The notes under the pieces were generated by a model. It did not search any database and was not told the origin of the DNA. It worked only from the letters and a program-made list of their open reading frames with translations. The translations under genes were made by a program, and so were the position numbers. Below, piece after piece: positions 1 through 51,790 of a stretch of 64,000 nt of DNA. Numbering within the stretch: position 1 is the first letter of the stretch; each line of letters begins with the position of its first letter. The DNA is from Sphyrna mokarran (taxonomy: Eukaryota), in the NCBI GenBank assembly GCA_024679065.1, contig JAGIQG010000006.1, positions 130,014,001 to 130,078,000 on the forward strand, written 5' to 3'.

Positions 1-84
1 ATACTTTTCATCTTAGTTTATTCCCCTAAAACATTGAGTTCAAAAACAACCAGTTCAAGTTTTAAAGCTTGTTTCTATCATGTG

Positions 85-192
85 ATTTTTAAAAATTCAT
101 TCATAGGACTTGGGTATCACTGGCTAGCTCAGCATTTATTGCCCATCCCTAGTTGTCCTTGAGAAGGTGGTGGTGAACTGCCTCCTTGAATT
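85..192 (-). mobile_element. 3' end of an abundant retroposon (LINE/SINE tail family)
   Basis: AGCATTTATTGCCCATCCCTAGTTGTCCTTGAGAAGGTGGTGGTGAACTGCC; similar sequence recurs near 12530-12620 and 30750-30810, and on the opposite strand near 39960-40070 and 57300-57400. Confidence 0.6.
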
Positions 193-627
193 TCCAGTAA
201 ATCTTTCCCTTTTTCCAGTTTTCTTCCCATCGACATGATTGCAATGCATAAATCTTTTTTTCCCCATCAAGTACCATGCTGGTCAGGTGACTTCTTGGAA
301 AATGCATGTTTCTCCCAGTCCAAAAGTAAATTTATGACCTTTGTTTAAAAATGTCTTGGAAGTGTCCAAATATTGCAATGCCTTCCAAATTTAAAAAAAA
401 AAATTCCAGTTTGTGAAGAAATAGTAAAAGAGACAATGGATGAATCCTTAAAAGTCAACGCAGTTGCTACTTTTCGTAGCAGATTGTTATGTAACTCGGC
501 AAAAAAAAATGTGATTGCACACCACTGCACAGGCATCAATGATTTTCAATGTCTAGTCCCATCTTTTGAGGAGGAAACAGTGAAATCCAGAGGCAACTAA
601 TGCCTTGCTTTCAAGAAAGCAGGCAGT

Positions 628-790
628 TACATTACATAGAACATAGAACATTACAGTGCAGAACAGGCCCTTCTGCCCTCGATGTTGCGCCGACCAATTA
701 AGAAAAAGCAATGACCCTCTAACCTAAACCATTCCCTTTTCATCCATATTTATCCATATTTATCCATATTTATCCATATTTATATTTATC
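628..790 (-). mobile_element. CR1 LINE 3' end with local tandem expansion
   Basis: Reverse complement of the CR1 3' end at 51290-51388, with (ATAGAAC)n tail; ends in about 4 copies of ATCCATATTT. Confidence 0.8.
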
Positions 791-1010
791 ACAACATTGG
801 ATAGTTGTGATAAATATAGCTAGTATATTATACAAAATTGACCCTGTTGGAGAACACTTGCAGCAGACTGAGTTAATAAATTTCAAATCAAATGAAGACT
901 TTTCTGTAACTCAACCAAGTTTTTCACCCTGGAGTATAGGGTTTATACGAGCTTTGAGATACTTAGCCCACAGCATATGTTGCGGTTACTGTTAGAAGAG
1001 GAAACTAAGA

Positions 1011-1020
1011 ATATATATAT

Positions 1021-1064
<44 letters not shown>

Positions 1065-1065
1065 C
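1011..1065. repeat. Compound (TA)n-(TG)n-(CG)n microsatellite
   Basis: Directly visible alternating purine-pyrimidine tract. Confidence 0.95.
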
Positions 1066-1995
1066 CGTTATTCCTGGATTTTATGAACACGTTGAATCTT
1101 GAATCACAAGGACTTCCATATCAGTTGGAGCTTTGAAGGCTGCCTCGGTGTTAACTTGTTATATAGAAGTCTGTTTCATCAGAAGGTGGGTCCCTTGGTA
1201 CACACTTCTACAAAACCTGGTGGTCTACTGTTGGTGGAACTGCAAACTTTGCAAAATATAACTGGGAAGAAAATTAAAAACAAATTAGGATGAGAATCTT
1301 CAATCTGAAACCCAAGTCTTACAGATTGAAAGATCAGTTCCTGTTGGTTGCATGAATTAAGTCTCTGGTACTAGAGATCCGACCTAATCTTGTTTGTTCT
1401 TTCTGAACAAGTTTTCACTAGCCAGTCAAGCAGTGAGTTGAGTATTACCTTGCAGTTCAATCATTCCTGCTGTTTCAGCTTCACAAACTGTGGTGGCTAA
1501 TAGTTTCCGTGGTGATAATGGGAGAAAATTAAAAATCAAATAAATAACAAACAACTTTCAGAAACCTTTCAATAGCAGCTGAAACTTCATTTGGTTGTGA
1601 ATGATTTGCACAATTAGTTTGAGCCTGAAAGATTAATGGTGAAAATAGAAGAATGGAATAGTTTCAGTGAGTCCTGATAAGCAAAGTTTTTAGAAAAGTA
1701 AACAAGTCCCTGCTTAAGGAAGCCTTTGTTATTTGTTTCACTTTTCTTGAGGACCCACAGTTTTATTCTGTGCACTTATCAAGCAGCAGTAGTGTTGATC
1801 AGCATGTGAACCTGAATGTTGTTCCATGTTGCTTATGCCAAGAAAATTCAGTGACTCCCAATAAATATTGCATTCTTCATCAAGCTCTGTATTGGTTAGA
1901 CATGCTGATAGTTGCTCAGACCTCTGTTAATTTTACCTTCAATTATTTAATCCAGTGTGCACGTCACTATTGTTTCTTATCTGTGTCGTGCTTTT

Positions 1996-2208
1996 TCAAT
2001 AAGAGGTCTGACAACACCAATTTTAAATCCAACCGATTGATAGTAAACTTGCTAGCTTTCGGCCTTTGTGCCTTGTGATTTGCCTGACGAAGGCACAAAG
2101 GCCGAAAGCTAGCAAGTTTACTATCAATCGGTTGGATTTAAAATTGGTGTTGTCAGACCTCTTACTGAGTTTACCCCAGTCCAACACCGGCATCTCTACG
2201 TCATGACT
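1996..2208 (+). mobile_element. Fold-back element derived from a Penelope-like terminal repeat (family A, copy 1)
   Basis: Perfect 75-bp inverted arms 2000-2074 and 2090-2164 around a 15-nt spacer, plus a one-sided tail CCCCAGTCCAACACCGGCATCTC. Homologous to 10293-10497, 22606-22746 and 41441-41645. Confidence 0.8.
2075..2121 (+). ncRNA. Minimal type I hammerhead ribozyme motif
   Basis: Stem I GUGAUUUGC / GCAAGUUUAC; core CUGACGA (2084-2090) plus extra A; stem II GGC-ACAAAG-GCC; GAA; self-complementary AGCU in place of helix III; predicted cleavage after A2111. Confidence 0.7.
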
Positions 2209-3358
2209 ACTATCAGTGCTGTCTGCATTAAACTTCATCTTGTATTGTCTATTCATCTGCAGTTCTTACCAACCGTTTTGTAATTTCTGAGCTGCCTCTT
2301 CCAAGTCAACTTTCCTTGCTTGCCTGGTACCATTTACAATTCTGACCACCTTGCTTTGAGCTTTTGTACCATGACTATTGATTTTTAACTTGAAATTGTA
2401 GTGATCCAAGTGCTAAACCCTGAGGCATCCCAACCTTTCTGACATAATTCCTTTAGGAACATATGCTGTTTCTTATTTATTCCTAGATTTTATTCTGAAT
2501 CCTCAATTTTGAATTTAATTAATAGTCTTTTTGTAAAGTTTTGTCAAAAGTCTTTTAGAAGGCATTGTTTTTTGGACACCCAGTTCAGTTTCAGCAGAGT
2601 ATTTAATTTGCAAATAATCACCCAGGTCAATTGAAAGTGATCTTTCATTGACGTACAACAGAATTCTTTAATAATCAGATCAGGGAAGATAATAACTTTT
2701 ATATAACAATACTTGTGTGTAGCAGGAATTATTTCATTGATATTGAGTAAACAATTTTAATATTGTATCTGCAGCCAATAGATAGTGAAGAAATAGAGAG
2801 CATAAAGTGATAACTTTGAGGTGTGACAGTAATGTGTGGATGACTGATATTTTTCTGCACGCCTCCTCTGTGTCTCATCTCTGCTCAACACCTTCTCGTA
2901 AAGGACAATTGGGACTGGAAGATTGAACTCATGTTTCACACTGTGGCAGTCTTGCAGGTTGAGGCTGCAATATGTTACAACACATTTGATTAGATGTAAC
3001 TTGTATATAATGTGGAGTAAAGGAGCTTGTTTAAAAGTTTGCATTAATTATGCTTATCACATAAATTGTGTAGCCTGTAAAGCCAAAACAAATGTCATTT
3101 GCGGAAATAATCCAGCCAAATAAACTGTTGTTACTCCATTCATGTGTAGAACAGCAAGCCTTGTATTCAAAACTAGTTTGTCACCTGCTATGGAGAGGCA
3201 TTTTACTAACAAGCAACACATTAACCTCTGCTTGCTTCATTTATGTTTTTATTTAAGTTGTATTTCTCTAACAAGCTGACTCTAACTCTGTGCTCTGCCA
3301 TAAGTTATGAAATTCTTGTGTCTATTGATTGTTTTTGTCCTGGTTATGACAATAACAG

Positions 3359-3492
3359 ATATTGGAGGATGAGCTGAAAGAAACCAGGAATCAGGTGGAA
3401 GGCATGCACAACAAATGTAATGAATTGTCATCCCACCTTGTACATCAGCAGGCAGATCTGACACGAAAGGATGTTGAAGTGACTAAATTCAG
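3359..3492 (+). CDS. CNTLN: Centlein internal coding exon (first in window)
   Basis: Acceptor AATAACAG ends at 3358. Translates ILEDELKETRNQVEGMHNKCNELSSHLVHQQADLTRKDVEVTKF(R), resembling recalled human centlein TFEDNLIEARKEVEVSQSKYNALSLQLSNKQTELIQKDMDITLVR. 134 nt, ends in phase 2 at CAG|GCAAGT, matching the start phase of the next exon. Confidence 0.85.
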
Positions 3493-3544
3493 GCAAGTAC
3501 TTCATACAGAACCCAGAATCGAGTTTGTTCATTGTTGAAAAACA

Positions 3545-3722
3545 GAATACTATGATATCTGAAATACAATGGAAAGTGCTGAAAATACACAACTAGTCTG
3601 ACAACATTTGGAGAGTGAAAGAGTTAACATTTCAGGTTGTTGCACTGTTTTGATGAAAGATATTGACCAATATTGTTAACCTTATTTATCTCCCCATGGA
3701 TGTTAAAATGTTTTCTGATTTG
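3545..3722. mobile_element. Degraded Penelope terminal-repeat fold-back (family B)
   Basis: AGTGCTGAAAATACACAAC...GAGTTAACATTTCAGGT...TGATGAAAG...GTTAACC resembles 11405-11582. Confidence 0.45.
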
Positions 3723-4734
3723 TTCAGTGTTGACTTGGTAACTTCTGCATGCCTGTTAAGATTTTAGTTTATTCAGATAGATTTATGCTGAGTTTAACAT
3801 CTCTTCACAATAATGAAAAAACATAACATAATATGTTTTCATTGTATGTTGTAAATAATTGCTTTGACAATAGAAGGCATTGGTAACTGTTCAGAAATTT
3901 TAGTTGCTGAGTGTTCAGGACCTATACAATTTTCAGATTGACTTAACATTTTAATCACTGTTGAGTTTCACAGAGCAATGGGAACACACAAAGACCTAGG
4001 TTAAAGGTTCAACATGTTCAGATTTGAGCTTTATGTGACAGCATGTAAATCTTCCCTGCGTTAAAGCCATAGGATTAATGCTGCATATTTGAAAAGCTGC
4101 TGAGAAATGGGAAACACGAAAGGGAAAGCTGTAATAACTTGGCTATTTCATTCATTACAGTATGGTCAGATCAGGGGCATTAATTTGTATACAAAAAAGC
4201 TAGCACTTCCTGAGCAGTAGCATTATGTAAATGAATTAAACCTGCAGTCAGATGTGATGAAACTGTCTTGAATAAAATCTATCTATAGACCTTTATCACA
4301 AACATTTTATCCTCCAAATATGACAACCAAAACATTTTTATTGCGTACCTTCTTTTTAAGAAGGTAATAACTGAATATTGCAAAATGCAATGAGAATGAT
4401 GCAGAGATAAATGAGAACATGTATCCATTTGCAGCCGAAGCATATGGGTAATTAAAATTCTCCTTAGAAATGGTGCAGAGCATCACTCCACTCATTGAAG
4501 CTTGATATGGAAATTACTATTGCCATCCTTTTAATGGGGGAGCCATTCCAGGCATTGAAATGCACATGAAACTCACTGGTTGATATTGAAAGCCCTTAAA
4601 ACTCTCTTCCCAGCACTTCACCCCCCCACAAAATTGCGAGTAATGCTAACTTTGGTTAGGGGGTGCGCTCATAGCTTGCTGTAGTGATCTGTGTTAAATC
4701 ATTGAGACATGTTCATAATTTCATTTTAATGATG

Positions 4735-5510
4735 CCTCCAAAGTCAGCATGGTTTTATGAAAGGAAAATCAAATTTGGCAGGTTTATTAGTCTTTTGAGG
4801 ATATAAGTAATCGGGTTGATAAAAAGAAACCTGTAAATGTAGTATATTTGGATTTCCAAAGGCACTCAGTAAGGTGCTACAAAAAAGGTAACATAAAGGC
4901 TCATGGAGTCAGGGATAACTTATTGATGGATATAGGATTGGCTAATAGGCAGGAAATAGAGAGCAGGGTTAAACAGGGCAGTTTCAAGTTGGCACTGTGT
5001 GGCTAGTGAAGTGCTCCTAGTTCCAGGAGCCTCAGCTGTTTATGACTTAGATGAAGAGGTGTGATCTAAGTTTGCTGACGATACAAAATTATGTGGGAAT
5101 GCAAGCTGTGAGGGGGACAGAGACTGCAAAGAAATCTAGACAGGTTAAGTGAATGAGCAACAGCGTGGCAGATTGAATATCATATAGGGAAGTGTGAAAT
5201 TTATTCCATTTGGCAATAAGATTAGAAAAGCAGAATAGTTTTTAAAATGCTAATGTCCACAAATATTTAGTGCCCTTCTACCAAATTAGGAAGACAAATG
5301 GCATGTTGGCCTGTATTGAAAGGGACTGAAATGAAAGAATGAGAAACGCTTGTACATTTGTTGTAGGGTTTTGGTGAGACCACATCTGGAATACAGTTTT
5401 GGCCTTCATATCTAAAGAAGGATCCAGAGGCAGTACAGCAAAGATTCAATAGATTGGCTGTGGGGTGAGAGGATTGTCCTATGGACAAGAGGTTGTGTAA
5501 ATTACCTTAT
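4735..5510 (+). mobile_element. Degraded CR1 LINE RT fragment
   Basis: TATTTGGATTTCCAAAGGCA (YLDFQKA) and AAGTTTGCTGACGATACAAAA (KFADDTK), with many stops and frameshifts. Confidence 0.85.
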
Positions 5511-5675
5511 AGAACATAGAACAATACAGCACAGAACAGGCCCTTCAGCCTTCGATGTTGTGCCGACCAAAATAAAAAGCAATGCCCCTCCAAACTAAAC
5601 CATTCCCTTCTCTTCCATATACTTATCAATTAACCTCTTAAACGCCACCAAACTTGGCGCATCTACAACAGATAC
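5511..5675 (-). mobile_element. CR1 3' end inserted antisense into the older CR1
   Basis: AGAACATAGAACAATACAGCACAGAACAGGCCCTTC tail; the host CR1 resumes near 5680 (TACTCTCTTGAATTTGG). Confidence 0.75.
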
Positions 5676-5969
5676 TTTGATACTCTCTTGAATTTGGATG
5701 AATGTGATGTTATCGCATTAAAACATATGGATGTCTTTTTGCTTAATTGCTGATGCCCCTGCCTCTGAAGCAGAAGTTTGGGGTTCCAGTCCATGGAAAG
5801 TTCATGATGTTCAACAGTTGATAATCAGCCTAATAGTCCTTCCCAATATGCCCCACTCTTCCCCAAAGGGAGAAAAAAGTGTTTGAAGATATGAAACAAA
5901 TGGTTAAAATATACAAGATTCTGAAGGGGCTTAATAGAGTAGGCACAAAAATTTTTTCTCTGGTTGGAA

Positions 5970-7385
5970 AATCATAGAATTGTTACAGCACAGAGGAAGG
6001 CCATTCAACCCATATGTTAATGCTAGCTTATCTAAGGAGCAATTCACATGTGGCCACTACTCTGTTCTTTCTCTTTTTACAGGTGTTTAGAAAATATAAA
6101 AATGTTTATGGCACAGAAGGAGGCTATTCTGTCCAGCCAAAAAAAAAAACAGCCTCCTATTCTAATCCCATTTTCCATCAATTGTTCCATAGCCCTGGAG
6201 GTTATAGGACTTCAAGAACATCTCCAGACATCTTTTAAATGAGTTGAGTTTCTCTTTCTCCTGTTCTTTTACACAGTGAGTTCCAGTCCATTATGAAGAA
6301 CTGGGTGAAAACAATTTTCCTCCTTTCCTCTCTAATTCTAATACCAATGACTTGAAATTGATTCCCCCCCCTGTCACTGACCACTCTGCCAAGGTCTATA
6401 GGCCCTTTCTGGCCCCTATATCCAGATCCCACTCACAACCTTATATATGTCAATAAATCCCCCTGTAATCTCTTCTGTTCCAAGGAAAACAACCCCAGCC
6501 TATTCTGTCTTATATCTGCATTTTTATAGTCTTGGTAACAGCCTCATAAATATCTTCTGCCATCCACTCTTGCACAATTACACCTTTTCTGTAATGAGTG
6601 ACCAGAACTGCACAGAGTACACAAGTTGCAGCCTAACTAGTGTTTTGACTAATTCGAGCTCTTAAATTCTATGCCTTAGCTAATAAATGAAATAATTCAT
6701 ATGCGTTCCTGGTTGCTTCAATGGCCTGACCAACTACATTCAGAGATCTGTGGACATACACCCTATTGCTCCTCACATCCTCTGCACCGGAACCCCACTG
6801 AAAATAGCCTTCCAGTCATAAAAACACCCATCAGCTATTACCCTTTGTTTCCTGCCATTGAGTCAATTTTACACCTGGCTTGCTATATTCTTCTGGATCC
6901 CCATAGATTTTTTTTTAATCAGTCTGCATGTGGGAACTTGTCAATAGTCTTGCTAAATGACCATATAGACTGCACTAGCTTCATCAATCCATCTTGTTAC
7001 CTCCTCAAAAAAATTCAATCAAACTGGCCTGACACAGGTTCCCTATAACAAATCTGTGCTGACTGTCCTTGGTTAATCCATGCCTTTCTAAGTGACAGTT
7101 TATCCTTTACCTCAGAATTGATTCCAGTAATTTGCCATGTACTGAGGTTAGGCTGGCCTGTAATTATTTGGTCTATTCTCTGCTCTGTTTTTAAACAAAG
7201 GTGTAACATTAGTAGTCCTTTCAGTATTCTGGCACCGCACCTTCATCCAATGAGCATTGGGAAGTGATGGTCAGAGCATCTGCTATTTCCTCCCTAGCTT
7301 CTTTGAACAGCTGAGATACATTTCATTTCATCCAGGTCTGGTGATTTATCCCTTTTTAAGGATGTTAATCCCCTTAATATTTCTG
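5970..7385 (-). mobile_element. Old CR1 fragments (minus strand)
   Basis: GACCAGAACTGCACAGAGTACAC (reverse of YCVQFW) and TAGGCTGGCCTGTAATT (reverse of NYRPVSL-like). Confidence 0.7.
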
Positions 7386-7414
7386 TTGACTTGATGTTTG
7401 TTGCATTCAGTATT

Positions 7415-7722
7415 TCACAGTCCAGTCTGGAACATGGGCACAGTCTTCAGGATTAAGGGTCGATTGTTTAAAACTGAAATGAGGCAAAATTACATTATTT
7501 TGACGGTTATGAATAACTGGGATTCGTTACCGCAGAGGGAGGTGGATGCTACATTGTTGAACGTACTTAAGGCTGGCAGACAGATTTTCGATCTCTCCAG
7601 AAACCGAGGCATATTGGAGCAGGCAGGAAAGTGGAGTTTGAGTCAAACATAATCGTCTTAACTGGTAGGGCAGGCTTGGTGCGACATGTGTTCTGCTCCT
7701 CCTTTTTCTTAAATTTCTATGT
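7415..7722 (+). mobile_element. CR1 3' end
   Basis: GGGCACAGTCTTCAGGATTAAGGGTCGATTGTTTAAAACTGAAATGAGG, followed by a CR1-type 3' UTR ending TTTCTATGTTTC. Confidence 0.7.
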
Positions 7723-8794
7723 TTCAAAGTTCATCATTTTTCTAATTGTGTGTTGAAATTGGGCAAACAGATTTCAAACTTCTTAGCACAGTATAGGATA
7801 ATATATTTACTTCTCTGTCACTGAGCTTCCGTTTTATAGTTTATTGAATCTGTTCATGCCAACAAATAAGCCATTTGCATTGAATCACTTCTTGCAAGTC
7901 TAAACGACCAAGGCTGCCTTTTAATACAGAGGAAGTTGTGAGTTAGTCAGTGGGATGTAAGAGGACTACAGCTTTTCTTTGGTCATCTGGCTGGTATTTA
8001 CTTGGGACAGGCAAAAATGCTGAAACTGATTTATTCTCTCGTCATGGGAGAAGTGTATTGGCTGTTCATTGTTTCTCAAAACTGAAGTGAATTTAAGTAG
8101 AGCAATTGTGCTGGAAATCAGTGCCATAGTGATGAGAAATTTCAGTCTCTTTCAAAACTGTCTGTATGTTTCTGTATCTTAATGTGCTTGAGACAGATGG
8201 AATAAATTGGACCAAGTGAACGTTTTCCTGTTCCAGGAACGTGTTGCATTTCCAAATTATTTTCAATATTAAAGATCAGACTTCAGAAATAATTTCCAGT
8301 ATATATTGCTTGGTAAGAAATGTGATGTTATGCCATAAGCTTTTACAACACTGTAAGCATACAAATAATAAGCTTTTTGTAGAAAGATAGTGATCCAGCT
8401 AGTTGGCAGTTTACCTATTCAACATCTGTTTTCACTTGACCATGACAATGTTTTACTGGACCTGATCCAGGGAATCCTGTGTAAGTGGGATAAGAATTCT
8501 GGAAGTATGTTTCCTTCAAATAAAAACTGTGTCATAGTTGAAGACTGTTAATTTTGATGGTCTGGTTGAAATGCAGTTGTCTCATTTATCATATTGTTCC
8601 ATATAAACAAGAAGAGTATACAGGGACTTAATTGATACATTTCCCGCAAAAAGAAAATGTTCTTATTAACCATATCTTCACTAACTGTCATTTACTGTCA
8701 ATCCTAAGAAAATTGGGCACTGGTTGCTTTACATAAAGCGCATGAACATACTTATTTCCTGGTATCTAAGCCAGATTATTTGCCTCAACCAAAA

Positions 8795-8976
8795 TTGCTA
8801 AAAGCAGATTGTCTGGTCGTTATTTTAATTGCTGTTTGTGGGATCTTACTGTGCACAACTGGGCTGCCAAGTCTCTACATTACAGCAGTGACTACACTTT
8901 AATAACTACTTAATTGGCTGTTGGACACCTTTAAACATCACACGGTTGTGAAAGATACTATACAAATGCACAGTCC
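8795..8976 (+). mobile_element. DeuSINE-like (SacSINE1/AmnSINE-related) 3' part
   Basis: ATTGCTGTTTGTGGGATCTTACTGTGCAC...ATTACAGCAGTGACTACACTT...GTGAAAGATACTATACAAATGCA; reverse-complement homolog at 33045-33450. Confidence 0.65.
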
Positions 8977-10292
8977 TCCCCTCCTCTAAAGAGAATGATG
9001 ATTTATCTGGTAAGGACCCATCAGCGCAAATAAAGGATGTTTTTCTAATATATAAATTTACAACATATACACACTGAGGAATATTTGAGAAAATCTATAC
9101 ATGTGTGTATAAAAATATGGAGATCACTGAGGGTTTGAATGTGGAATGTGAAAAAGATACATATGGTTGCAACAGAATGTAAAACTTTAATTATGCTGCC
9201 ATCTACAGAAACCATATACTGTAATCTCCAAGCTTATGAATGATGTACGTTTAGTCACCTGTAAGTGGGAGAATTTTACATGGTTCATGCACCATGTAGA
9301 ATATGACAGAGGCTGTGAAATCTTGCAGATGATGAGGCAATTTTTTAATTGGACTTTGTTTAAAAACGCCAGTATTTTGTATTCCTGCTTTATTTCAGCA
9401 AGAATATGGTATTTACAAAAGCAGAAAAAATTGATGGATTTTTGATAGTCAATTATAAAATCATCTTTGCATTAAATAGTAGTTTTCTTTTTCTCCACGT
9501 GGAGCAAGGATGCTGATGTTTAAATGCAAATACTTGAATGTTTATTTATTTGACTCTGCTGTTGTATTTGTCTGGGGGTGGTGGAGAAAATTCTGTTTCC
9601 ATTTAGGAGCTTGCAAAGAAAAGGATGCATATGTTTTACTGCAAATTGCAATTGATTTTGTGATGTGTTGCATTATGCAAGCAGTAATAATATTTATCAA
9701 ATGAACAATCTTAACTCATCCCTTTATTCTGCTAAAACATGTACTCATAGTTTATCATATCCATGTTTTTTGAGCACAAGATGAAAATCAAAGAAAATAA
9801 AAATTGGAAATTGTATTTTTTAGAATAGAGTGTTTTTTCCAATGACATTTCTTTTCGTTTGAGGCATGTATTGTTTTTGATGGTTACTGAAGTGATCTTG
9901 TAGTCTGGAGGTACAAATGGTTTGCATTTTGTTGAAATGTGTCAAATTCAACAAAGCAATAGGATTCATGTGACACATTTGTTACATAAGTTAATGAAAG
10001 TTACAAATATATTTTAAAATAAACACATCTTCCACAACATTGCTGCAAGTCAGCAATCAGGGAATTCCTTGTTCTGCAATAAAATTATTTGTAAAGGCAT
10101 TTGAAAAATAATGACGACCTTCTGGTCTACACAGCCCATCCCATACAATTGAGATACCTTGTGAGTCACAGCATGAATGCTTTAACCCACCCAGAACCCT
10201 CCACTTCAGGCAGGGAAAATCCCAAGGCAAAGCCAGGAAAGAAATCTGCAAAATTTCCTTCTGAGCTTCTGGCAGTCGGAGATAGACATAAT

Positions 10293-10497
10293 ATAGAGAT
10301 GCCGGTGTTGGACTGGGGTAAACTCAGTAAGAGGTCTGACAACACCAATTTTAAATCAAACCGATTTATTTGATAGTAAACTTGCTAGCTTTCGGCCTTT
10401 GTAGCCTTCGAAGGCTACAAAGGCCGAAAGCTAGCAAGTTTACTATCAAATAAATCAATTGGATTTAAAATTGGTGTTGTCAGACCTCTTACTGAGT
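10293..10497 (-). mobile_element. Fold-back Penelope terminal-repeat element (family A, copy 2; spacerless palindrome)
   Basis: 176-bp palindrome 10322-10497 centred on CCTTC|GAAGG with 3 mismatched pairs; tail AGAGATGCCGGTGTTGGACTGGGG on the left; near-identical to copy 1. Confidence 0.8.
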
Positions 10498-11041
10498 CGA
10501 CGATAGTCCAGGTGACCACTTTTGCCCTGAATTCTTCAAGTGTCCACCTTTTCGTTGGAAGGATTACCAGCCAATCCAGAACCAGGTCCAGTTCCAATTT
10601 GAAAGAATTCAAAAAAATCTATATCAATTGGCAGCCTGTTCCACTGACCCCACTGTTTTCTAGACAAGGAGGAACTATCCAATATCCAACCTAGTCCTCT
10701 CCCTATTTAATGCATAAATTTAACCCCTGGTCTTCACAATCTGTTCAAATGGAACAAGTTGTCAACTTGGGATTTATTCCCATCACTTTATATACCTCAA
10801 TTAGTTTATTCTCAAGTGTAAGCCTCCCTAAAATGTAGAGTCCCAATTCTTTGAGCCTGTCTTAATAATTACGATGCTTTATTGGAATTGGACCAGTGGT
10901 TCATCTTTTCTAAAGTCTCATTGTCATCCAGTTTTTGATGAGACAAGAACTGACCACACTGGCCTTTAATTTTATATTTATTTGATTCATTTGGCTTGAG
11001 ATTTTGTGTACTATTATTAAAGCCAACAATGCAAAACATTG

Positions 11042-11582: not shown

Positions 11583-13792
11583 CATAGTAGGGAATCATTT
11601 GGCTAATCAGGTCTGTACTGTCTCTTTGAAAAAGCTATCCAATTAGTTTCACTTCCCTGCTGTTTCCCCATTCCCTGCATTTTTTTTCAAGTAATTTGTT
11701 AGTTCATCATGATCTGTTGACTGGTGGAGCCAGTTGGATGGGCTGAATGGCCCACTATTGTTACTATTTCTTGTGATCCTATGTATTACAGTTAAAAATA
11801 TCAGCATGCTGCTAGCAGATGTCTTTGATTTTACCAATCAGCCCCAGCTTGAGAATGAGGTGTAAATACTCATAAAATTTGATTTGGTGGTTTCAAAAAC
11901 GTAATGATTACCAGAAGAAAGCTATATAAAACGGAAGTGTGCTAGTTGCTATCTTGGACTCTGTCCCATCATTTCCAGTTTTGAAAAGATGTGAGATTGA
12001 GATGAAAGGATGCCTGAATGAGATTTGGGTGGTTGACTAAAATATTTTCAAAGTTACTGAGAACATGACAAGCAAGGCCAACAACCATGTTGGACTTTAT
12101 CCAGTTGAGGTCAATGTGGTGATTAAACGTCCATGTAGTCACAAGAAAAGGATGTTACAACAGCTTAAAATGCTTTTATCCGTGGCTCATTAAATGTTCC
12201 CAGCAGCAATGCGATTACATTCTGTATTACAGAGTTGTATTTTAAGTATCCTGGTCAGTTTTTAAAACTTTCATTTATTTTCTAGAATGCATTCTAGTTA
12301 CAAGCACTTGTTGCTTCTTGTGTATTATTTTCAAAGCTTTTATGACCTTCTTGCTTCTTTACGCTTAATGGCACAGTGAAGAATTATATAGAATTTTTAA
12401 CAATGCCTCTAGTAACACCTTTCCCTAAATTCAGATTTATTGGTGAATGAGGAAAATAACATAACATGTTGTGGAAGAACTTATCCTTATAGGATAAATG
12501 GTTTGAACCCATTTATTAATATTTTACATTCACGGGTAGTTGGCAAGGCCATCATTTATTGCCCATTGCCAACTACCCTTGAGAAGGTGGAGGTGAGCTG
12601 TCACCTTCAATTCAACTGAGTGTCTTAGGCCATTTCAGAGAGCAATTGAGTCACCCATTGCCGTGGAGTCTGGAGTCATGTATAGTTTAGGCCACCAAAT
12701 TTACTTTGCAAATAACATTAGTGAATTTGATGTGTTTTTACAACAATCCAGTCATTTCATGATCACTTTACTAATACTTGGTTTTATTTCTAGATTTATT
12801 TAATTAATTATTTTGAAATTCCCCAGGAGTCACATCTCTGGGCTATTTTTCTGATGTATGGATTACTCATCCAGTAATATAGCTGCCATACTCCATGCTT
12901 CACCTGTGTTATTTCCCAAAGTAAAAAAATATTTTAAAGAATTTTTAAAGTAATATTTCTCTTTATGTATTTATAGGCTTTGTTTTATATGAAGGAAGTT
13001 CATTTTTTTCTGTTCTTGTGAGATTATGTTCTCATTGTTGAGTATATTAACCACGAGTTTATACTGTTCTCATGAAGTGAAAACATATTTGGAAACACCG
13101 TAGAAAACATAAAGAAGAGAAGAATCCAAAGTTTAGAAGTGCAGTCATCATACATTAAGATAAACTGTCAGGATATTATAGGGGATTCGAACCAATCCAA
13201 AGCATATACATTCTTGGATCTTAGAAGTAACATGGTTGTTCAAAAAAGATTTTCAAGAATATATTATTGATTCCTTCCTTTGGAGAAGCTTTTGAGAGGT
13301 GAAATAGAATTACGAGCAATTAAAAAAAGTTGCTTTTTAGGGACTGCGATTTTATTTTGCAACAGTGGCTGCTTATTGATATTTGAAGTGATTATGACAT
13401 TGGAATCGGAAAGGCTGATTCGTACTTTATTGAAACATCAGAAGTTTTCACATCTCCCAATGAGCTACAAAATGTACCTTGCTAAATAGAAATCATAGCT
13501 TTCCACAATTTTATTTACTTACAGGAGCAATCTCAATGGCTATCTAAAATTCTACCCGTGTAAGGATAATTTTCAAAGATTCAAATAATAATATCAATGT
13601 TTTTGAGATTTATGAAAGAAAATTATTTGAAGTGGTAACAGAAAATGGTTTGATATGGATTGTTATCCAATCTGAATTACCATGCTGATGCAAGGACATT
13701 CTGAATTTCGAATTGGCATCACCAGACTTCACAGTTCCATGTCTTCTGCAATTGCCAATAGTCTCATTTATATTTTCTTTACAAATGCACAG

Positions 13793-13955
13793 GAAGGAGT
13801 TCCAAGACCTACAGTGTCTGTACAAAGAAAGCATTGAACATGCAGCCCAGCAAGCTGATGTCATCCAGCAGCTACAGGCCCTCAACCTTGATACACAGAA
13901 GGTGCTGAGGAATCAGGAGGATGCCCATGCTTTGGAGACCAAGTCCTTTCAAAAG
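13793..13955 (+). CDS. CNTLN: Centlein internal coding exon
   Basis: Pyrimidine-rich tract plus CAG acceptor, AAG|GTAAGT donor. (R)KEFQDLQCLYKESIEHAAQQADVIQQLQALNLDTQKVLRNQEDAHALETKSFQK closely matches recalled human KELQELQNLYKQNSTHTAQQAELIQQLQVLNMDTQKVLRNQEDVHTAESISYQK. Confidence 0.92.
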
Positions 13956-16300: not shown

Positions 16301-17820
16301 GGATGCCTTAATAATTATTCATCAAAATTTGCTGGATTCTGGGGAAGTGCTGGAAGATTGGAAAACAGTTAATGTTGCACCGCTGTTTAAAAAAAGCTAG
16401 TAGACAAAAGGCAGGGAATTATAGGCTGGTTAGTTTAATGTCCGTAGTTGGAAAAATGCTAGAATCTGTCTCAAAGAAGAAATAATGAGGCACCTACAAA
16501 AGAACGGTTTAATTAAGCAGACACAGCACGGATTCGCTAAGGGGAAGTCGTGTTTAATGAATTTATTGGATTTCTATAAGGATGTGACTAGTGTGGAAGA
16601 CAGGGGAACCAGTGGATATGGTGTGTTTTTGGATTTCCAAAAGGCGTTTGATAAGGCACCTCACAAAAGGTTGCTGCAAAAGATTAGGATGCAGGGAGTT
16701 GGGAGTAAGGTGTTAACATGGATAGATTGGTTGTCTAACAGAAAGCAGAGAGTTGGAATCAATGGGTACTATTCTGGTTGGCAGCTGGTGACTAGCGGAG
16801 TGCCCTAGGGATTGATGCTGGGGCCTCAACTGTTTACCATTTACATAGATGATCTAGAGGAGGGGACTGAGTGTAGGGTGACAAAATTTGCTGATGACAT
16901 AAAGATGAGTGGAAAAGCAAATTATGTGGAAGGCGCGGAAAATCTGCAGAGAGATCTGGATAGGTTGAATGAGTGGGCGAGGACCTGGCAGATGGAGGAT
17001 AATGTTAGCAAATGTGAGGTTATCCACTTTGATAGAAATAATAGTAGAAGGGATTATTATTTAAAAGGTGAAAAGCTGCAGCATGCTATGGTGCAGAGGG
17101 ATCTGGGGGTCCTTGTGCACGAATCGCAAAAACCCAGTTGGCAGGTGCAGCAAGTGATCAAGAAGGCGAATGGAATGATGGCCTTTATAGCGAAGGGGAT
17201 AGAATGTAAAAGCAGGGAGGTCTTGCTGCAATTGTACACAGTACTGGTGAGGCAGCAACTTCACTGTGTGAAGTTTTGGTTGCCGCATTTGCAGAAGGAT
17301 ATATTGGCCTGGGAGGGAGTACAGAGAAGATTCACTAGGTTGATACTGGAGATGAGGGGGTTAGCCTATGAAGAGAGATTGAATAGATTGGATCTGTACT
17401 CATTGGAGTTTAGAAGGCTGAGGGGGGATCTTATAGAGGCATATAAGATAATGAAGGGGATATATAGGGTAAAGGTAGAGAGATTCTTCCTGCTTAGAAA
17501 GGATAACAGGACTAGAGGGCACAGCCTCAAAATAAGAGAGTGGGGGGGGGGAGTTTAGATCAGAGTTGAGGAATTTCTTCACTGAAAGGGTAGTGAGTCT
17601 CTGGAATTCTCTGTCCATTGAAGTGGTGGAGGCTACCTCATTGAATATACTTTAGTCACAGGTAGATAGGTTTCTGATAGACAAGGGAATTAAGGGTTAT
17701 GGGGAGAAAGCGGGAAAGTGATTCTGAACCACTGCAGATCAGCCATGATCTTATTGAATGGCGGGGCAGGCTCGAAGGGCTAGATGGTGTACTCCTGCTC
17801 CTATTTCTTATGTTCTTATC
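16301..17820 (+). mobile_element. 5'-truncated CR1 LINE, RT domain with stops and frameshifts
   Basis: ORFs 16485-16808 and 16812-17558: QHGFAKGKSC, FLDFQKAFDK, SGVP*G, KFADDIK, WEGVQRRFTRLI, RRLRGDLIE; tail TTCTTATGTTCTTAT. Confidence 0.95.
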
Positions 17821-22605: not shown

Positions 22606-22746
22606 CTTTGGAGCGCTGTTGCTTTATCAGGACTCACCTGATGAAGGAGCAGTGCTCCGAAAGCTTATGCTACCAAATAAACCTGTTGGACTTTAAACTG
22701 GTATTACTGTGCCCACCCCAGTCCAACACTGGCATCTCCATATCAT
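22606..22746 (+). mobile_element. Penelope terminal-repeat element (family A variant) with hammerhead core
   Basis: CTGATGA (22638-22644), A, GGAGC-AGT-GCTCC, GAAAGCTT; preceded by a short imperfect antisense arm (CTTTGGAGCGCTG...ATCAGG); same CCCCAGTCCAACAC tail; flanked by TCCCCTCCT direct repeats at 22596 and 22746. Confidence 0.75.
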
Positions 22747-41440: not shown

Positions 41441-41645
41441 CTAACAACACCAGGTTAAAGTCCAACCAGTTTATTTGATAGTAATCCACAAGCTTTCAGA
41501 AATGCTGTTCCTTCGTCAGGTGTGTGGAAGGAACAATGTTTCTGAAAGCTTATAGGATTACTATCAAGTAAACCTGTTGGATTTTAACCTGGTGTTGTGA
41601 GACTTCTTACTGTGTTTACTCCAGTCCAATGCCAGAATCTCTACA
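41441..41645. mobile_element. Fold-back Penelope terminal-repeat element (family A variant) with 14-bp TSD
   Basis: Imperfect inverted arms ACAACACCAGGTTAAAGTCCAAC... / ...GTTGGATTTTAACCTGGTGTTGT; minus-strand CCTGACGAAGGAACAGCATTTCTGAAAGCTTG; TTAAGAATTCCTAT repeated at 41422-41435 and 41646-41659. Confidence 0.8.
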
Positions 41646-42429
41646 TTAAGAATTCCTATATCAGGCCAAACATAGATTATTGTGCACAATTCTGGTGGTC
41701 TTGCTACAAAAAGAATGTGAAGGTGTTGAAAATGCACTAAAGGATTTAAGAAGATGGGAGGGGAGCAAGCAGTCAAAAACAAGGACTATTTGTTAAAGAT
41801 AGTCACAGATAAACTCAACATGAAATTCAGGAGTAATTTCTTCACTCGAGAGAGGTGAAAATGTGGAATACTCTACCACTTGGTGTGGCACAGATGCATT
41901 GGATGGGAAGTTAGACAAGTGTATGAGGGGAAAAAGGAATAGAAGGACATGCTGATGGTGTGAGATGATATATGATGGGAGGAATCTCATGTTGAGCATA
42001 TACAGCAGCATTGATAAATGGGCTTAATGGCCTATTTCGGTGCTGTAACTTTTATGCAATCATCACAAAAAGTCTTGCATTTACATTACACAACACCTTA
42101 AATGTCACAAAACTTTCCATAATGCTTGAGGTGGTGGTGGTGGAGTGATATTGTCATTGGACAATTAATCCACGTTTTATCACAAGTAACTCTTCAATTG
42201 CAGATAATAAAAATAGAACAAAACTTACTCCAACTTCTAAATCAAAGAAACATCATTACTTGAGGCCATGCCCAGGGCCACTCCAAACTCCCCACAATTG
42301 CAAACAAGTTCTTATTCATAGTGAGTAAGCTGGTCAGTTGACTATTATATCCTTTTATACTGTCTATGCCATTTAAATTAAGCCAATTTAATGCTAATTG
42401 CCAAAGATTTCACTATTCAGGATTATATC

Positions 42430-44840
42430 TAATTTCTAATATCAATTGGAAAAGCTATAGTTCAAGTATGTTAGAGGGGTCAGTTTTTGTTCAATGTGTG
42501 CAGGGAGGTTTCATGACTCAGTATGTAGATAGGCCAACAAGAGGTGAGGCTTTATTGGATTTGGTACTGGGTAATGAACCAGACCAGGTGTTAGACTTGG
42601 AGGTGGGTGAGCACTTTGGTGATAGTGACCACAATTCGGTTACGTTTACCTTAGTGATGGAAAGGGATGGGCACATACCAAATAACAGTAGTTATAGCTG
42701 GGGGAAAGGTAATTATGAGGCTATTAGGAGAGATTTAGGATGCATAGGGTGGAGCAGGATATTGCAGGGGCTGGGGACATCTGAAATGTGGAGCACATTT
42801 AAGGAACAGCTTCTGCATGTCCGTAATAAATATGTACCTGCCAGGCAGGGAGGAAGTGGTCGAGTGAGGGAACCACGGTGTACTAGGGAAGTTGAATCTC
42901 TGGTGAAGAGGAAGAAGGAGGCTTATATAATGATGAGACGTGAAGGCTCAGTTAGGCCACTGGAGAGCTATAAATTAGCCAGGAAGGAGCTAAAGAGGGA
43001 GTTGAGAAGAGCTAGAAGAGGACACGAGAAGACTTTGGCGGATAGGATTAAGGAGAATCCTAAAGCTTTTTACAGGTATATAAATAATAAAAGATTGGTT
43101 AGGGCAAGATTAGGGCCAGTCAGAGATAGCAGTGAGAAGTTGTGCATGGAGCCTGAGGAGATAGGAGAGACACTGAGTATTTTTCGTCAGTATTCACGCA
43201 GGAGAAAGACAATGTTGTCGGGGAGAATGCTGTGATACCAGGTTGTAGACTGGGCAGGATTGAGGTTCATAAGGAGGAGGTGTTAGCGAATCTTGAGGGT
43301 ATGAAAATTGATAAGTCCCCTGGGCCAGATGAGATTTACCCTAGGATTCTCTGGGAGGCTAGAGAGGAGATTGCAGAGCCTTTGGCTTTGATCTTCATGT
43401 TGTTGGCTACAGGTATAGTGCCGGAAGACTGGAGGATGGCAAATGTTGTCCCTTTGTTCAAAAAGGGGAGTAGGGACCATCCTGGAAATTATAGACCGGT
43501 GAGCCTGACTTCTGTTGTGGGCAAAGTCTTGGAAAGAATTATAAAGGATAGGATTTATAAGCATCTAGAGAGAAATAAATTGATTAGGGATAGTCAGCAC
43601 GGTTTTGTGAAGGGTAGGTCGTGCCTCACAAACCTTATTGAGTTTTTTGAGGAGGTGACCAAAGAGGTAGATAAGGGTAAGGCAGTTGATGTAGTGTATA
43701 TGGATTTTAGCAAAGCGTTTGATAAGGTTCCCCATGGTAGGCTACTGCAGAAAGTGCAGATGCATGGGATTGAAGGTGAGTTAGCAGTTTGGATTAGGAA
43801 TTGGCTAGCTGATAGAAGACAGAGGGTGGTGGTTGATGGGAAATATTCAACCTGGAGTGCAGTTACAAGTGGTGTACCTCAAGGATCTGTTTTGGGGCCA
43901 CTGCTGTTTGTCATTTTTATAAATGACCTAGATGAGGGTGTAGAGGGTTGGATTAGTAAATTTGCTGACGATAACAAAGTGGGGGGAGTTGTAGACAGCG
44001 AGGATGGATGTTACAGTTTGCAGAGGGACGTAGGTTGCAGAGCTGGGCCTTGAGGTGGCAAATGGAATTCAATACGGATAAGTGTGAGATGATTCACTTT
44101 GGTAGGAATAACAGGCATATGAAATATAGGGCTAATGGAAGGACCCTTAATAGTGTTGTCGAGCAGAGGGATCTTGGGGTACAAGTACATAGCTCTTTGA
44201 AAGTTGGCACCCAGGTTGATAAAGTTGTTAAGAAGGCGTACGGTGTGTTAGCTTTTATTGGTAGAGGGATTGAATTTAGGAGCCGTGAGGTTATGTTACA
44301 ACTGTACAAAACTCTGGTGCGGCCGCACTTGGAGTATTGCGTACAGTTCTGGTCGCCGCATTATAAGAAAGATGTGGAAGCATTGGAAAGGGTGCAGAGG
44401 AGGTTTACCAGGATGTTGCCTGGTATGGTGGGAAGGCCTTATGAGGAAAGGCTGAGGGACCTAAGGTTATTTTCATTAGAGAGAAGAAGGTTACGCGGTG
44501 ACCTAATTGAGGCGTATAAGATGATCAAGGGACTGGATAGGGTGGATAGTGAGAGCCTTTTTCCTCGGATGGTGATGACCAACACGAGGGGACATAACTT
44601 TAAATTAAGAGGTGGTAGTTATAGGACGGATGTCAGAGGCAGGTTCTTTACACAGAGGGTGGTGAGGGCGTGGAATGCCCTGCCTGCAGCAGTTGTGGAC
44701 TCGCCTACTTTGGGGGCATTCAAATGTTCGGTGGATAGGCATATGGATGATATTGGAATAGTTTAGGTTAGAGGGTTCACTGGCCGGCGCAACATCGAGG
44801 GCCGAAGGGCCTGTACTACGCTGTAATGTTCTATGTTCTT
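42430..44840 (+). mobile_element. Long 5'-truncated CR1 LINE (EN C-terminus plus RT, two frameshifts)
   Basis: ORFs 42366-43235, 43232-44053 and 44008-44766: [85 protein letters not shown]; tail TGTTCTATGTTCT. Confidence 0.97.
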
Positions 44841-50074: not shown

Positions 50075-51790
50075 AAGAACATAAGAACATAAGAAATAGG
50101 AGCAGGAGTAGGCCATCCAGCCCTCGAGCCTGCCCCGCCATTCAATAAGATCATGGCTGATCTGTAGTGGTTCAGTACCACTTTCCCAGTTTCTCCCCAT
50201 AATCCTTAATTCCCTTGTCAATTAAAAACCTATCCACTCTTGACTTGAACATATTCAGCGAGGAAGCCTCCACCACCTCATCAGGCAGACAATTCTAAAG
50301 ATTCACCACCCTTTGTGTGAAGAAACTCCTCCGCAACTCTGATCTGAACTGCCCCCCACCCCACCCAATCTTGAGGCTGTGTCCTCTAGTCCCGCTATCT
50401 TTACTAAGCGAGAAGAGTCTCTCAACCTCTACCCTATCCATCCCCTTCATTATCTTATACGTCTCTATAAGATCCCTTCTCAACCTTCTAAACTCCAAAG
50501 AGTACAAACCTAGCCTATTCAGTCTCTCCTCATAATCCAACGCCTTCATCTCCGGTATCAGCCTAGTAAACCTTCTCTGCACCCCCTCCAAGGCCAATAT
50601 ATCCTTCCTCGAATGCAGCGACCAAAACTGCACACAGCACTCCAGCTGCGGCCTCCCCAGCACCCTATACCCGATAGGACTCTTAATAGTGTTGATGAAC
50701 AGAGGGATCTTGGTGTATATGTGCATAGATCCCTGAAAGTTGGCAATCAAGTTCTTAAGGTTGTTAAGAAGGCATATGGAGTCTTAGCTTTCATTGGTAG
50801 GGGGATTGAATTTCGGAGCCGCAACGTTATGTTGCAACTGTACAAAACTCTAGTGCGGCTGCACTTGGAGTATTGTGTGCAGTTCTGGTCACCGCATTAT
50901 AAGAAAGATGTGGAGGCACTGGAGAGGGTACAGAGGAGGTTTACCAGGATGTTGCCTGGTATGGAAGGCAGGTCTTATGAAGAGAGGCTGAGGGATTTGA
51001 GGTTGTTTTCTTTAGAAAGAAGGTGGCTAAGAGGAGACCTTATTGAAACATATAAGATGATTAGAGATTTAGATAGGGTGGACAGTGATAGCCTTTTTCC
51101 TAGGATGGAGAAAGCTAGCATGAGGGGACATAGCTTTAAATTAAGGGGTGTTGGTTATAGGACGGATGTCAGAGGTAGGCTCTTTACCCAGAGGGTGGTA
51201 AGGGTATGGAATGCCCTGCCTGTGTCAGTTGTAGATGCCCCAAGTTTGGTAGCGTTTAAGAGGTTAGTAGATAAGTTTATGGACGAAAAGGGAATGGTTT
51301 AGGTTAAAAGGTCATTGCTTTTTTCCTAATTGGTTGGCGCAACATCGAAGGCCGAAGGGCCTGTTCTGCGCTGTAATGTTCTATGTTCAATGTTCTATAC
51401 AGCTGCAACAGAACCTCCCTACTTTTATATTCTATCCCCCTCGCTATAAAGGCCAACATTCGCCTTCTTGATCACCTGCTGCACCTGCAGACTGTGTTTT
51501 TGCAATTCGTGCACAAGGACCCCCAGGTCCCTCTGCACCATCGCATGCTGCAGCTTTTCACCATTTAAATAGTAATCCTTCCTACCATTATTCCTACCAA
51601 AGTGGATAACCTCACACTTGCTAACATTATACTCCCTCTGCCAGGTCCTCGCCCACTCACTCAACCTATTCAGATCCCTCTGCAGGCTTTCCACACCCTC
51701 CACGCAATTTGCTTTTCCACTCATCTTCGTGTCATCAACAAATTTCATCACCCTGCACTCAGGCTCTTCCTCCAGATTGTCTATGTAAAT
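50075..51790 (-). mobile_element. CR1 (minus) split by an antisense CR1 of another subfamily
   Basis: Tail (AAGAACAT)n at 50075; host pieces 50075-50670 and 51389-51790 (KFVDDTKMSGKANCVEG...). Confidence 0.92.
50671..51394 (+). mobile_element. CR1 3' fragment inserted in CR1
   Basis: ORF 50613-51302 RTLNSVDEQRDLGV...LEYCVQFWSPHYKKD; tail TGTTCTATGTTC; CTATAC occurs at both junctions. Confidence 0.92.

Follow-up and report, generated by a model that had tools for sequence, protein, structure and literature searches.

Does the hammerhead ribozyme motif on the transcribed strand of a CNTLN intron in Sphyrna mokarran, which directly follows its own antisense copy, carry a built-in lock that lets it persist there, or is the antisense arm a by-product of how the sequence was inserted? 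An earlier note on this DNA, the 64,000-nucleotide stretch to which all positions below refer unless a locus is named (the window), had put forward the lock.

Host Gene and Genomic Context

The motif lies on the + strand of the CNTLN intron that is bounded by the exons encoding aa 130-193 and aa 186-234, and its proposed placement in the pre-mRNA sense is borne out by the + strand exon matches that flank it. The 26 exon matches to CNTLN, all on the + strand, span C1215:129,956,595-130,286,939 (~330 kb), and the window exon at 13785-13955 shares 98% identity with a shark centlein. The exon that closes the host intron (3356-3496, +; about aa 187-233) was placed by exon matches and also found within a spliced contig. 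Three window exons are joined without differing letters in one contig of run X1 (contigs only; presumed RNA), the first 54 letters of which fall outside the compared stretch, and the host-intron splice is not among the joins seen. LINE reverse-transcriptase fragments, which we take to be CR1-like, occur in CNTLN introns at 16434-17558, 42342-44766, and 50295-51790, the one at 42.3-44.8 kb having three long open frames. Another interspersed repeat is present as two copies, at 636-749 and 5509-5620, that are 88-90% alike and 4.87 kb apart.

A Minimal Type I Hammerhead Motif within an Inverted Repeat

The inverted repeat has arms at 1996-2074 and 2090-2168, each 79 nt long with one mismatch (at 1999), around a 15-nt loop. 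Direct sequence comparison upheld the first reading of 2000-2074 as the exact reverse complement of 2090-2164. The unit as a whole had been placed at 2000-2164 and, while the arms are indeed there, it is larger, the + strand copy continuing through a tail to about 2210-2214. The predicted fold of 1990-2210 reached -144.1 kcal/mol (z -23.1), with 0 of 200 shuffles equally good. Folded alone, 2075-2121 formed stems I and II, though not beyond shuffles (z -1.28; 18 of 200 equally good).

The hairpin also matched Rfam mir-955 and mir-737 (E 6e-07 and 4e-04), as a host microRNA or siRNA precursor might. However, both scores were below gathering (41.5 of 50 and 40.7 of 60, respectively), the matches are by pairing, and the sequence is a high-copy repeat. 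Both identities were rejected as subthreshold hairpin matches, and we regard a precursor role for the hairpin as extremely improbable.

From the motif and fold prediction, a minimal type I hammerhead with putative activity was delineated at 2078-2118 (+). The 5' strand of stem I (2078-2083) leads into the core CUGACGA (2084-2090) and an extra A (2091), followed by stem II (GGC/GCC; 2092-2094 and 2101-2103), GAAA (2104-2107), the palindromic AGCU (2107-2110), and the triplet CUA (2109-2111), all on the + strand, with the cut predicted after A2111 and the 3' strand of stem I running from 2112. Sequence features of the class were present, namely the core CUGANGA, GAAA, UH, and stems I and II, as well as the extra nucleotide after A9 (A2091), the G10.1-C11.1 pair (G2092-C2103), and the palindromic 15.2-16.2. 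Two copies could form four standard pairs through the AGCU palindrome. Core columns were retained in 27 to 30 of the 30 best-hit family copies, with the exception of G12 (25/30). Motif layout and family membership thus agree with the proposed Penelope-like element (PLE)-type minimal type I hammerhead with a palindromic helix III. Stem I held up only in part: the stem is present, but the outer letters assigned to it, 2075-2077, are junction sequence and not element, and the native stem I is therefore shorter than proposed. At these three columns, the 23 family copies that reach them carry C, T, and C in 23, 23, and 22 cases, respectively.

The search of Rfam hammerhead families that the earlier note had proposed returned no match up to E 10 in window positions 1-10000, hence none at the family threshold. 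Nor was the layout of a non-LTR retrozyme seen, in which head-to-tail tandem units each carry a hammerhead, as the unit is not directly repeated within 1-6000. The next + strand core, and the only other one in the window, is at 22638-22666, 20.5 kb downstream; it belongs to another family. The surrounding stretch (22638-22746) is an unpaired tailed PLE end in sense orientation; its core boxes are intact and it has AATAAA, whereas stem I is missing.

The Repeat Family and Its Parent Element

When 2075-2210 was searched against the 2.77-Gb genome, 2003 first-look candidates were obtained, of which 40 were scored; 39 other places, the best of the 2003 candidates, were 91-95% identical to it. A 30-nt core pattern had 284 exact genome copies and its reversed control 0. 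Other copies of the family reach further upstream, by up to hundreds of bases, and one locus (L062) encodes a 300-aa frame with a match to Pfam RVT_1 (E 3.7e-10) at L062:3749-4648(-), followed on that strand by the same hammerhead and tail. Its motifs LYTNI, GTAMG, and RYIDD are presumably those of a PLE-type reverse transcriptase (RT), judging from the motifs themselves and the accompanying features of the element. A linker of the form C-x4-C-x2-C fits the CX2-5CxxC form that Neptune/Nematis have between RT and EN. EN+ PLEs have a C-terminal GIY-YIG endonuclease whose motifs enclose two cysteines (CCHH), and GIY-YIG-like motifs (VVYL..C...C...YIGET, with later R and H motifs) were recognizable by eye in broken frames; two broken nuclease pieces from this locus had 0 matches to Pfam GIY-YIG. 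The CX2-5CxxC linker is part of the published definition of the Neptune/Nematis clade (PMC8557442). By its sequence motifs, the family fits an EN+ PLE of the Neptune/Nematis type, the clade being placed by motif only. In its full extent, L062:2698-5449 is a near-complete, broken PLE, with RT, linker, nuclease motifs, an 800-bp inverted arm, and a 13-nt word shared by its flanks.

Anatomy of the Window Insertion

Comparison with the family divided the window copy into two pieces. The main copy (2078-2214, +) comprises the last ~135 nt of a PLE pseudo-LTR, 5'-truncated and tailed; it is cut off 5-6 nt before the core and carries about 1.7% substitutions relative to the commonest letters of the family. 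The arm (1996-2074, -) is an inverted, 5'-truncated copy of the PLE 3' end with its tail-less end at 1996. Spanning +6 to +89 from the core start, it has stem II, GAAA, AGCU, and the cleavage triplet and lacks the CUGACG core. The inversion junction falls at 2075-2078, where the family match begins at 2078-2079 and 2075-2077 are unlike the native upstream letters of the family. An unpaired tail of about 40 nt (2169-2214, +), delimited by family ends to within a few bases at its 3' boundary, is present at one end only. Both arms bear a 5-nt deletion that removes AATAAA and was seen in only 2 of 60 focal copies; because the arms share so rare a deletion, a single template fits. A possible decayed target-site duplication (TSD) has its left copy at 1978-1989 and its right copy at 2211-2222 (both +), matching at 9 of 12 positions and leaving six unexplained bases before the arm, and the longest exact word shared by the outer flanks is only 5 nt. 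The window copy is a young, truncated fold-back PLE insertion with a well-formed hammerhead motif, an ordinary member of hundreds of near-identical insertions.

Head-to-Head Pairs across the Family

Inverted partners were located upstream at 18 of the 30 loci with the best hits and at 14 of the 30 chosen by genome position (32 of 60 rows, among which L006/L052 and L050/L051 are the same places). Every one of the 32 pairs combined a tailed end with a tail-less end that stopped about 35-40 nt short, and all 32 displayed the 5' truncation, inverted 5' copy, and one-sided tail of EN+ PLEs. The tail-less end was fixed at +86 to +97 from the core start, a class to which the window arm also belongs. 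Partners covered the cleavage site in 27 of 32 pairs and themselves held the whole core in 24. An inverted 5'-truncated copy with a one-sided tail of 30-40 bp is described as typical of PLEs (PMC8557442), as are inverted pLTR units, mostly head to head, flanked by 8-10 bp TSDs (PMC3846280), and pairs of minimal hammerheads on opposite strands, separated by 100-700 bp, have also been described (PMC4209133).

Could the arm have arisen after the insertion, either through a local fold-back duplication or through a second, independent insertion alongside the first? The unclear TSD of the window copy is consistent with such an origin, and the 78 of 79 matching positions between the arms, together with their common rare deletion, would be expected from later copying too. 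Against this, the arm stops at the same fixed short end as in all 32 pairs, and whole pairs are flanked by shared words. Among 34 paired events (repeats removed, L061 and L062 added), 26 shared an outer-flank word of at least 8 nt compared with 18 of 1122 mismatched flank pairs, the flank windows taking in 6-7 nt of the element ends. Since 26 of the 34 whole pairs are flanked by a TSD, arm and main copy were as a rule inserted together. Moreover, differences private to one arm were similar in 16 tight pairs and 18 long pairs (0.023 vs. 0.029 per site), and a later acquisition of the arm appears highly improbable. Variants shared by both arms were also alike, at 0.008 (tight) and 0.007 (long) per site. 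Gene conversion between tight arms was rejected on these rates, which point to no general homogenization.

Related arrangements were observed elsewhere. A further fold-back of this family occupies 10283-10510 in the next CNTLN intron (tailed copy -, tail-less arm +); it is an almost loop-less palindrome centered at 10409-10410, and the CUGA core has been lost from both copies. At 41441-41644 is a fold-back of a related PLE family with an intact core on the - strand (41519-41490) and a repeated word of ~14 nt at both flanks. A complex insertion at L031:1496-1873 contains two hammerhead-bearing ends on the same strand, ~290 nt apart, and is a candidate for a natural dimeric hammerhead.

Proposed Origin of the Unit

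On this evidence, we consider it very likely that 1996-2214 is one truncated PLE insertion in which a sense copy with a tail lies head to head with an inverted copy without one, that it stems from a single transposition event, and that its hammerhead is a silent passenger. In the mechanism we propose, the GIY-YIG nuclease of the element would make a staggered cut of about 10-14 bp, and its reverse transcriptase would prime on both cut strands (twin priming). One cDNA would begin at the outer start site and yield the tailed end, the other ~35-40 nt further in and yield the tail-less end; both would stop prematurely (at about 135 and 79 nt in this copy) before being joined head to head by repair. 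With both cDNAs beginning immediately 3' of the hammerhead, the cleavage site would be covered, without selection, by every arm exceeding ~60 nt.

In vitro assays of one PLE protein showed cleavage and extension of both strands of the target, with reverse transcription initiated at two adjacent sites whose spacing equals the tail (PMC11167929). Self-priming on an antisense template has been published as an alternative to twin priming (PMC3846280); under both routes the two copies would begin close to the 3' side of the hammerhead. The PLE literature cited here treats the origin of head-to-head insertions as unsettled.

Relation to Described Elements and Ribozymes

The EN+ PLEs Neptune and Nematis (Craig et al. 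2021, PMC8557442; Arkhipova et al. 2013, PMC3846280) resemble the shark family in their 5' truncation, inverted 5' copy, one-sided 30-40 bp tail, and TSD around the unit, and in a long copy with RT, a CX2-5CxxC linker, and GIY-YIG-like motifs. They differ from the window copy in that the latter has been reduced to ~135 nt and contains no coding sequence. In the Poseidon element PAc of Anolis carolinensis (Frangieh et al. 2024, PMC11167929), two adjacent classes of 3' end likewise lie approximately one tail length apart with a hammerhead nearby; PAc has two start sites and cutting of both strands in vitro, as described there, without the head-to-head joining we propose for the shark family. The hammerhead also sits downstream of the ORF in the shark family, whereas it overlaps the ORF start in Poseidon of Anolis. 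Minimal type I hammerheads from metazoan PLEs have been described (Cervera and de la Pena 2014, PMC4209133), and the Schistosoma motifs among them have a stem II of 7-8 bp, whereas that of the shark copy measures 3 bp. No shark is mentioned in the portion of that study considered here, and its supplements list more species. Amniote intronic hammerheads, such as that of RECK (PMC6155905), are also type I motifs in an intron; RECK-type motifs are conserved at single loci, whereas the shark copy is a young dispersed repeat (about 2% from the commonest letters).

A literature search, with most subscription journals outside its coverage, found no account of shark PLE hammerheads or of an antisense lock. 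The window locus alone matters little, as its architecture is published. The family, being young and abundant with clear TSDs and two sharp classes of 3' end, offers material for testing PLE head-to-head insertion.

Does the Arm Block a Working Ribozyme?

The antisense lock supposes that the hammerhead would cut CNTLN pre-mRNA and that armed insertions persist in the sense strand of introns since the arm blocks cutting. The block itself is consistent with fold prediction: the arm is transcribed first, and the predicted probability that stems I and II form together was 0.92 for 2075-2121, dropping to 0.34 once the downstream tail was included and to about 1e-32 once the arm was added. At the level of prediction, the earlier claim that the arm would trap the ribozyme therefore agrees with the fold: once transcribed into pre-mRNA, the two copies should pair over 79 bp, a hairpin incompatible with folding of the ribozyme and, in our reading, a side effect. 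However, whichever strand is read, copies placed head to head present the antisense copy first, and hence the geometry of a lock follows from structure alone. Indeed, the same geometry occurs on both strands, and an arm is present where no core survives (10283-10510).

Whether there is anything to lock is also doubtful. Stem I of the window copy was predicted better than those of three of four native unarmed copies tested in the same register, but single minimal hammerheads failed to cleave in the in vitro assays reported in PMC11167929 and PMC4209133; in the latter, a single motif gave no detectable cleavage and dimers little, and in the former, the Anolis PLE hammerhead did not cleave in the absence of protein and its cut site yielded no reads. 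Because single minimal hammerheads showed no cleavage in these published tests, there is perhaps little to lock. In free cofolding of two copies of 2075-2121, the active dimer was not the best structure, helix III having only 4 bp. A lone minimal hammerhead without helix III would need a second copy, and probably the protein of the element as well, to cut. By analogy with the published elements, the hammerhead motif in the window is likely a silent passenger. As for the other strand-matched core in the window, the sole one 20.5 kb downstream is without stem I, which again does not favor a lock.

As reported second-hand in PMC2995048, introns cut by a slower hammerhead are still spliced, whereas those cut by the fast HDV ribozyme are not; the abortion of splicing by fast intronic ribozymes would favor a lock, as would the depletion of tandem retrozymes from Xenopus introns reported in a preprint (10.64898/2026.07.22.740005).

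Orientation of Copies in Introns

We scrutinized 1.84 Mb of introns of known direction, comprising all those of CNTLN and parts of four CUB-domain genes, in which nested genes on the opposite strand are possible. We take the four, from their exon layout, to be CSMD and cubilin genes. Seven natural copies served as queries, and the matches pool several related pseudo-LTR families. Copies were classed as armed when an opposite-strand piece lay within 3 kb upstream, whether or not it overlapped the core.

Of 203 pseudo-LTR end pieces overall, 93 had the sense orientation (p=0.26). The first 1.64 Mb contained 67 pairs, with the tailed copy sense in 25, antisense in 25, and unclassable in 17. Intact cores were fewer on the transcribed strand (9 sense vs. 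16 antisense; p=0.23), in the direction that the antisense lock predicts. The arm itself followed the opposite trend, with 5 sense and 12 antisense armed intact cores compared with 4 and 4 unarmed ones (Fisher p=0.39; 25 cores, low power), such that 5 of 9 sense cores were armed vs. 12 of 16 antisense cores. The comparison of arm and orientation that the earlier note had proposed, run here on 1.84 Mb of introns, thus gave no bias of the proposed kind (p=0.39, low power). Contrary to the claim that the arm is a built-in lock letting sense intronic insertions persist, there is no excess of arms among sense cores, and four unarmed sense cores persist, albeit in a low-powered set of 25. Together with the folding and cleavage evidence above, these counts make the antisense lock very unlikely.

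A different pattern was apparent in unpaired pieces. In the first 1.64 Mb, 15 were sense and 31 antisense (p about 0.03; one of several comparisons), with a rerun giving 15 vs. 30 (p=0.036); 200 kb of fresh sequence added 2 sense and 0 antisense, and the pooled counts were 17 vs. 30 (p=0.079; 0.07-0.12 over three distance cut-offs). This antisense lean leaves room for selection against unpaired sense copies. Most unpaired pieces carry AATAAA (12 of the 15 sense and 23 of the 31 antisense ones), and a real lean could therefore be put down to a poly(A) signal just as well as to the ribozyme. If the lean held genome-wide, a by-product of transposition would shape which genic insertions survive.

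Could the arm, though arising from transposition, act as a passive shield? A hairpin that buries AATAAA, a possible poly(A) signal, might make sense pairs tolerated while unpaired sense copies are selected against, as the frequency of the hexamer and the lean of 15:31 (pooled 17:30) would suggest. However, this reading was formed post hoc from counts in introns only, the fresh 200 kb failed to replicate the lean (2:0, very low power), and the pooled p is 0.079. The window copy itself has AATAAA on neither arm and, having lost the hexamer, needs no such shield. We therefore regard this protective effect as rather improbable. A broader version, in which the PLE fold-back is a self-silencer that buries both AATAAA and hammerhead on whichever strand is read, with paired insertions tolerated and unpaired sense copies purged, is also unlikely. 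The reading that we prefer remains a single head-to-head insertion with a silent hammerhead.

PLE ends are dense in these introns, at ~1 per 9 kb (203 in 1.84 Mb), about three quarters of them in head-to-head pairs. Self-silencing, if true, would help explain this density. Loops are shorter than 30 nt in many of the pairs, which makes PLE ends an abundant source of long hairpins of perfect dsRNA in shark pre-mRNA.
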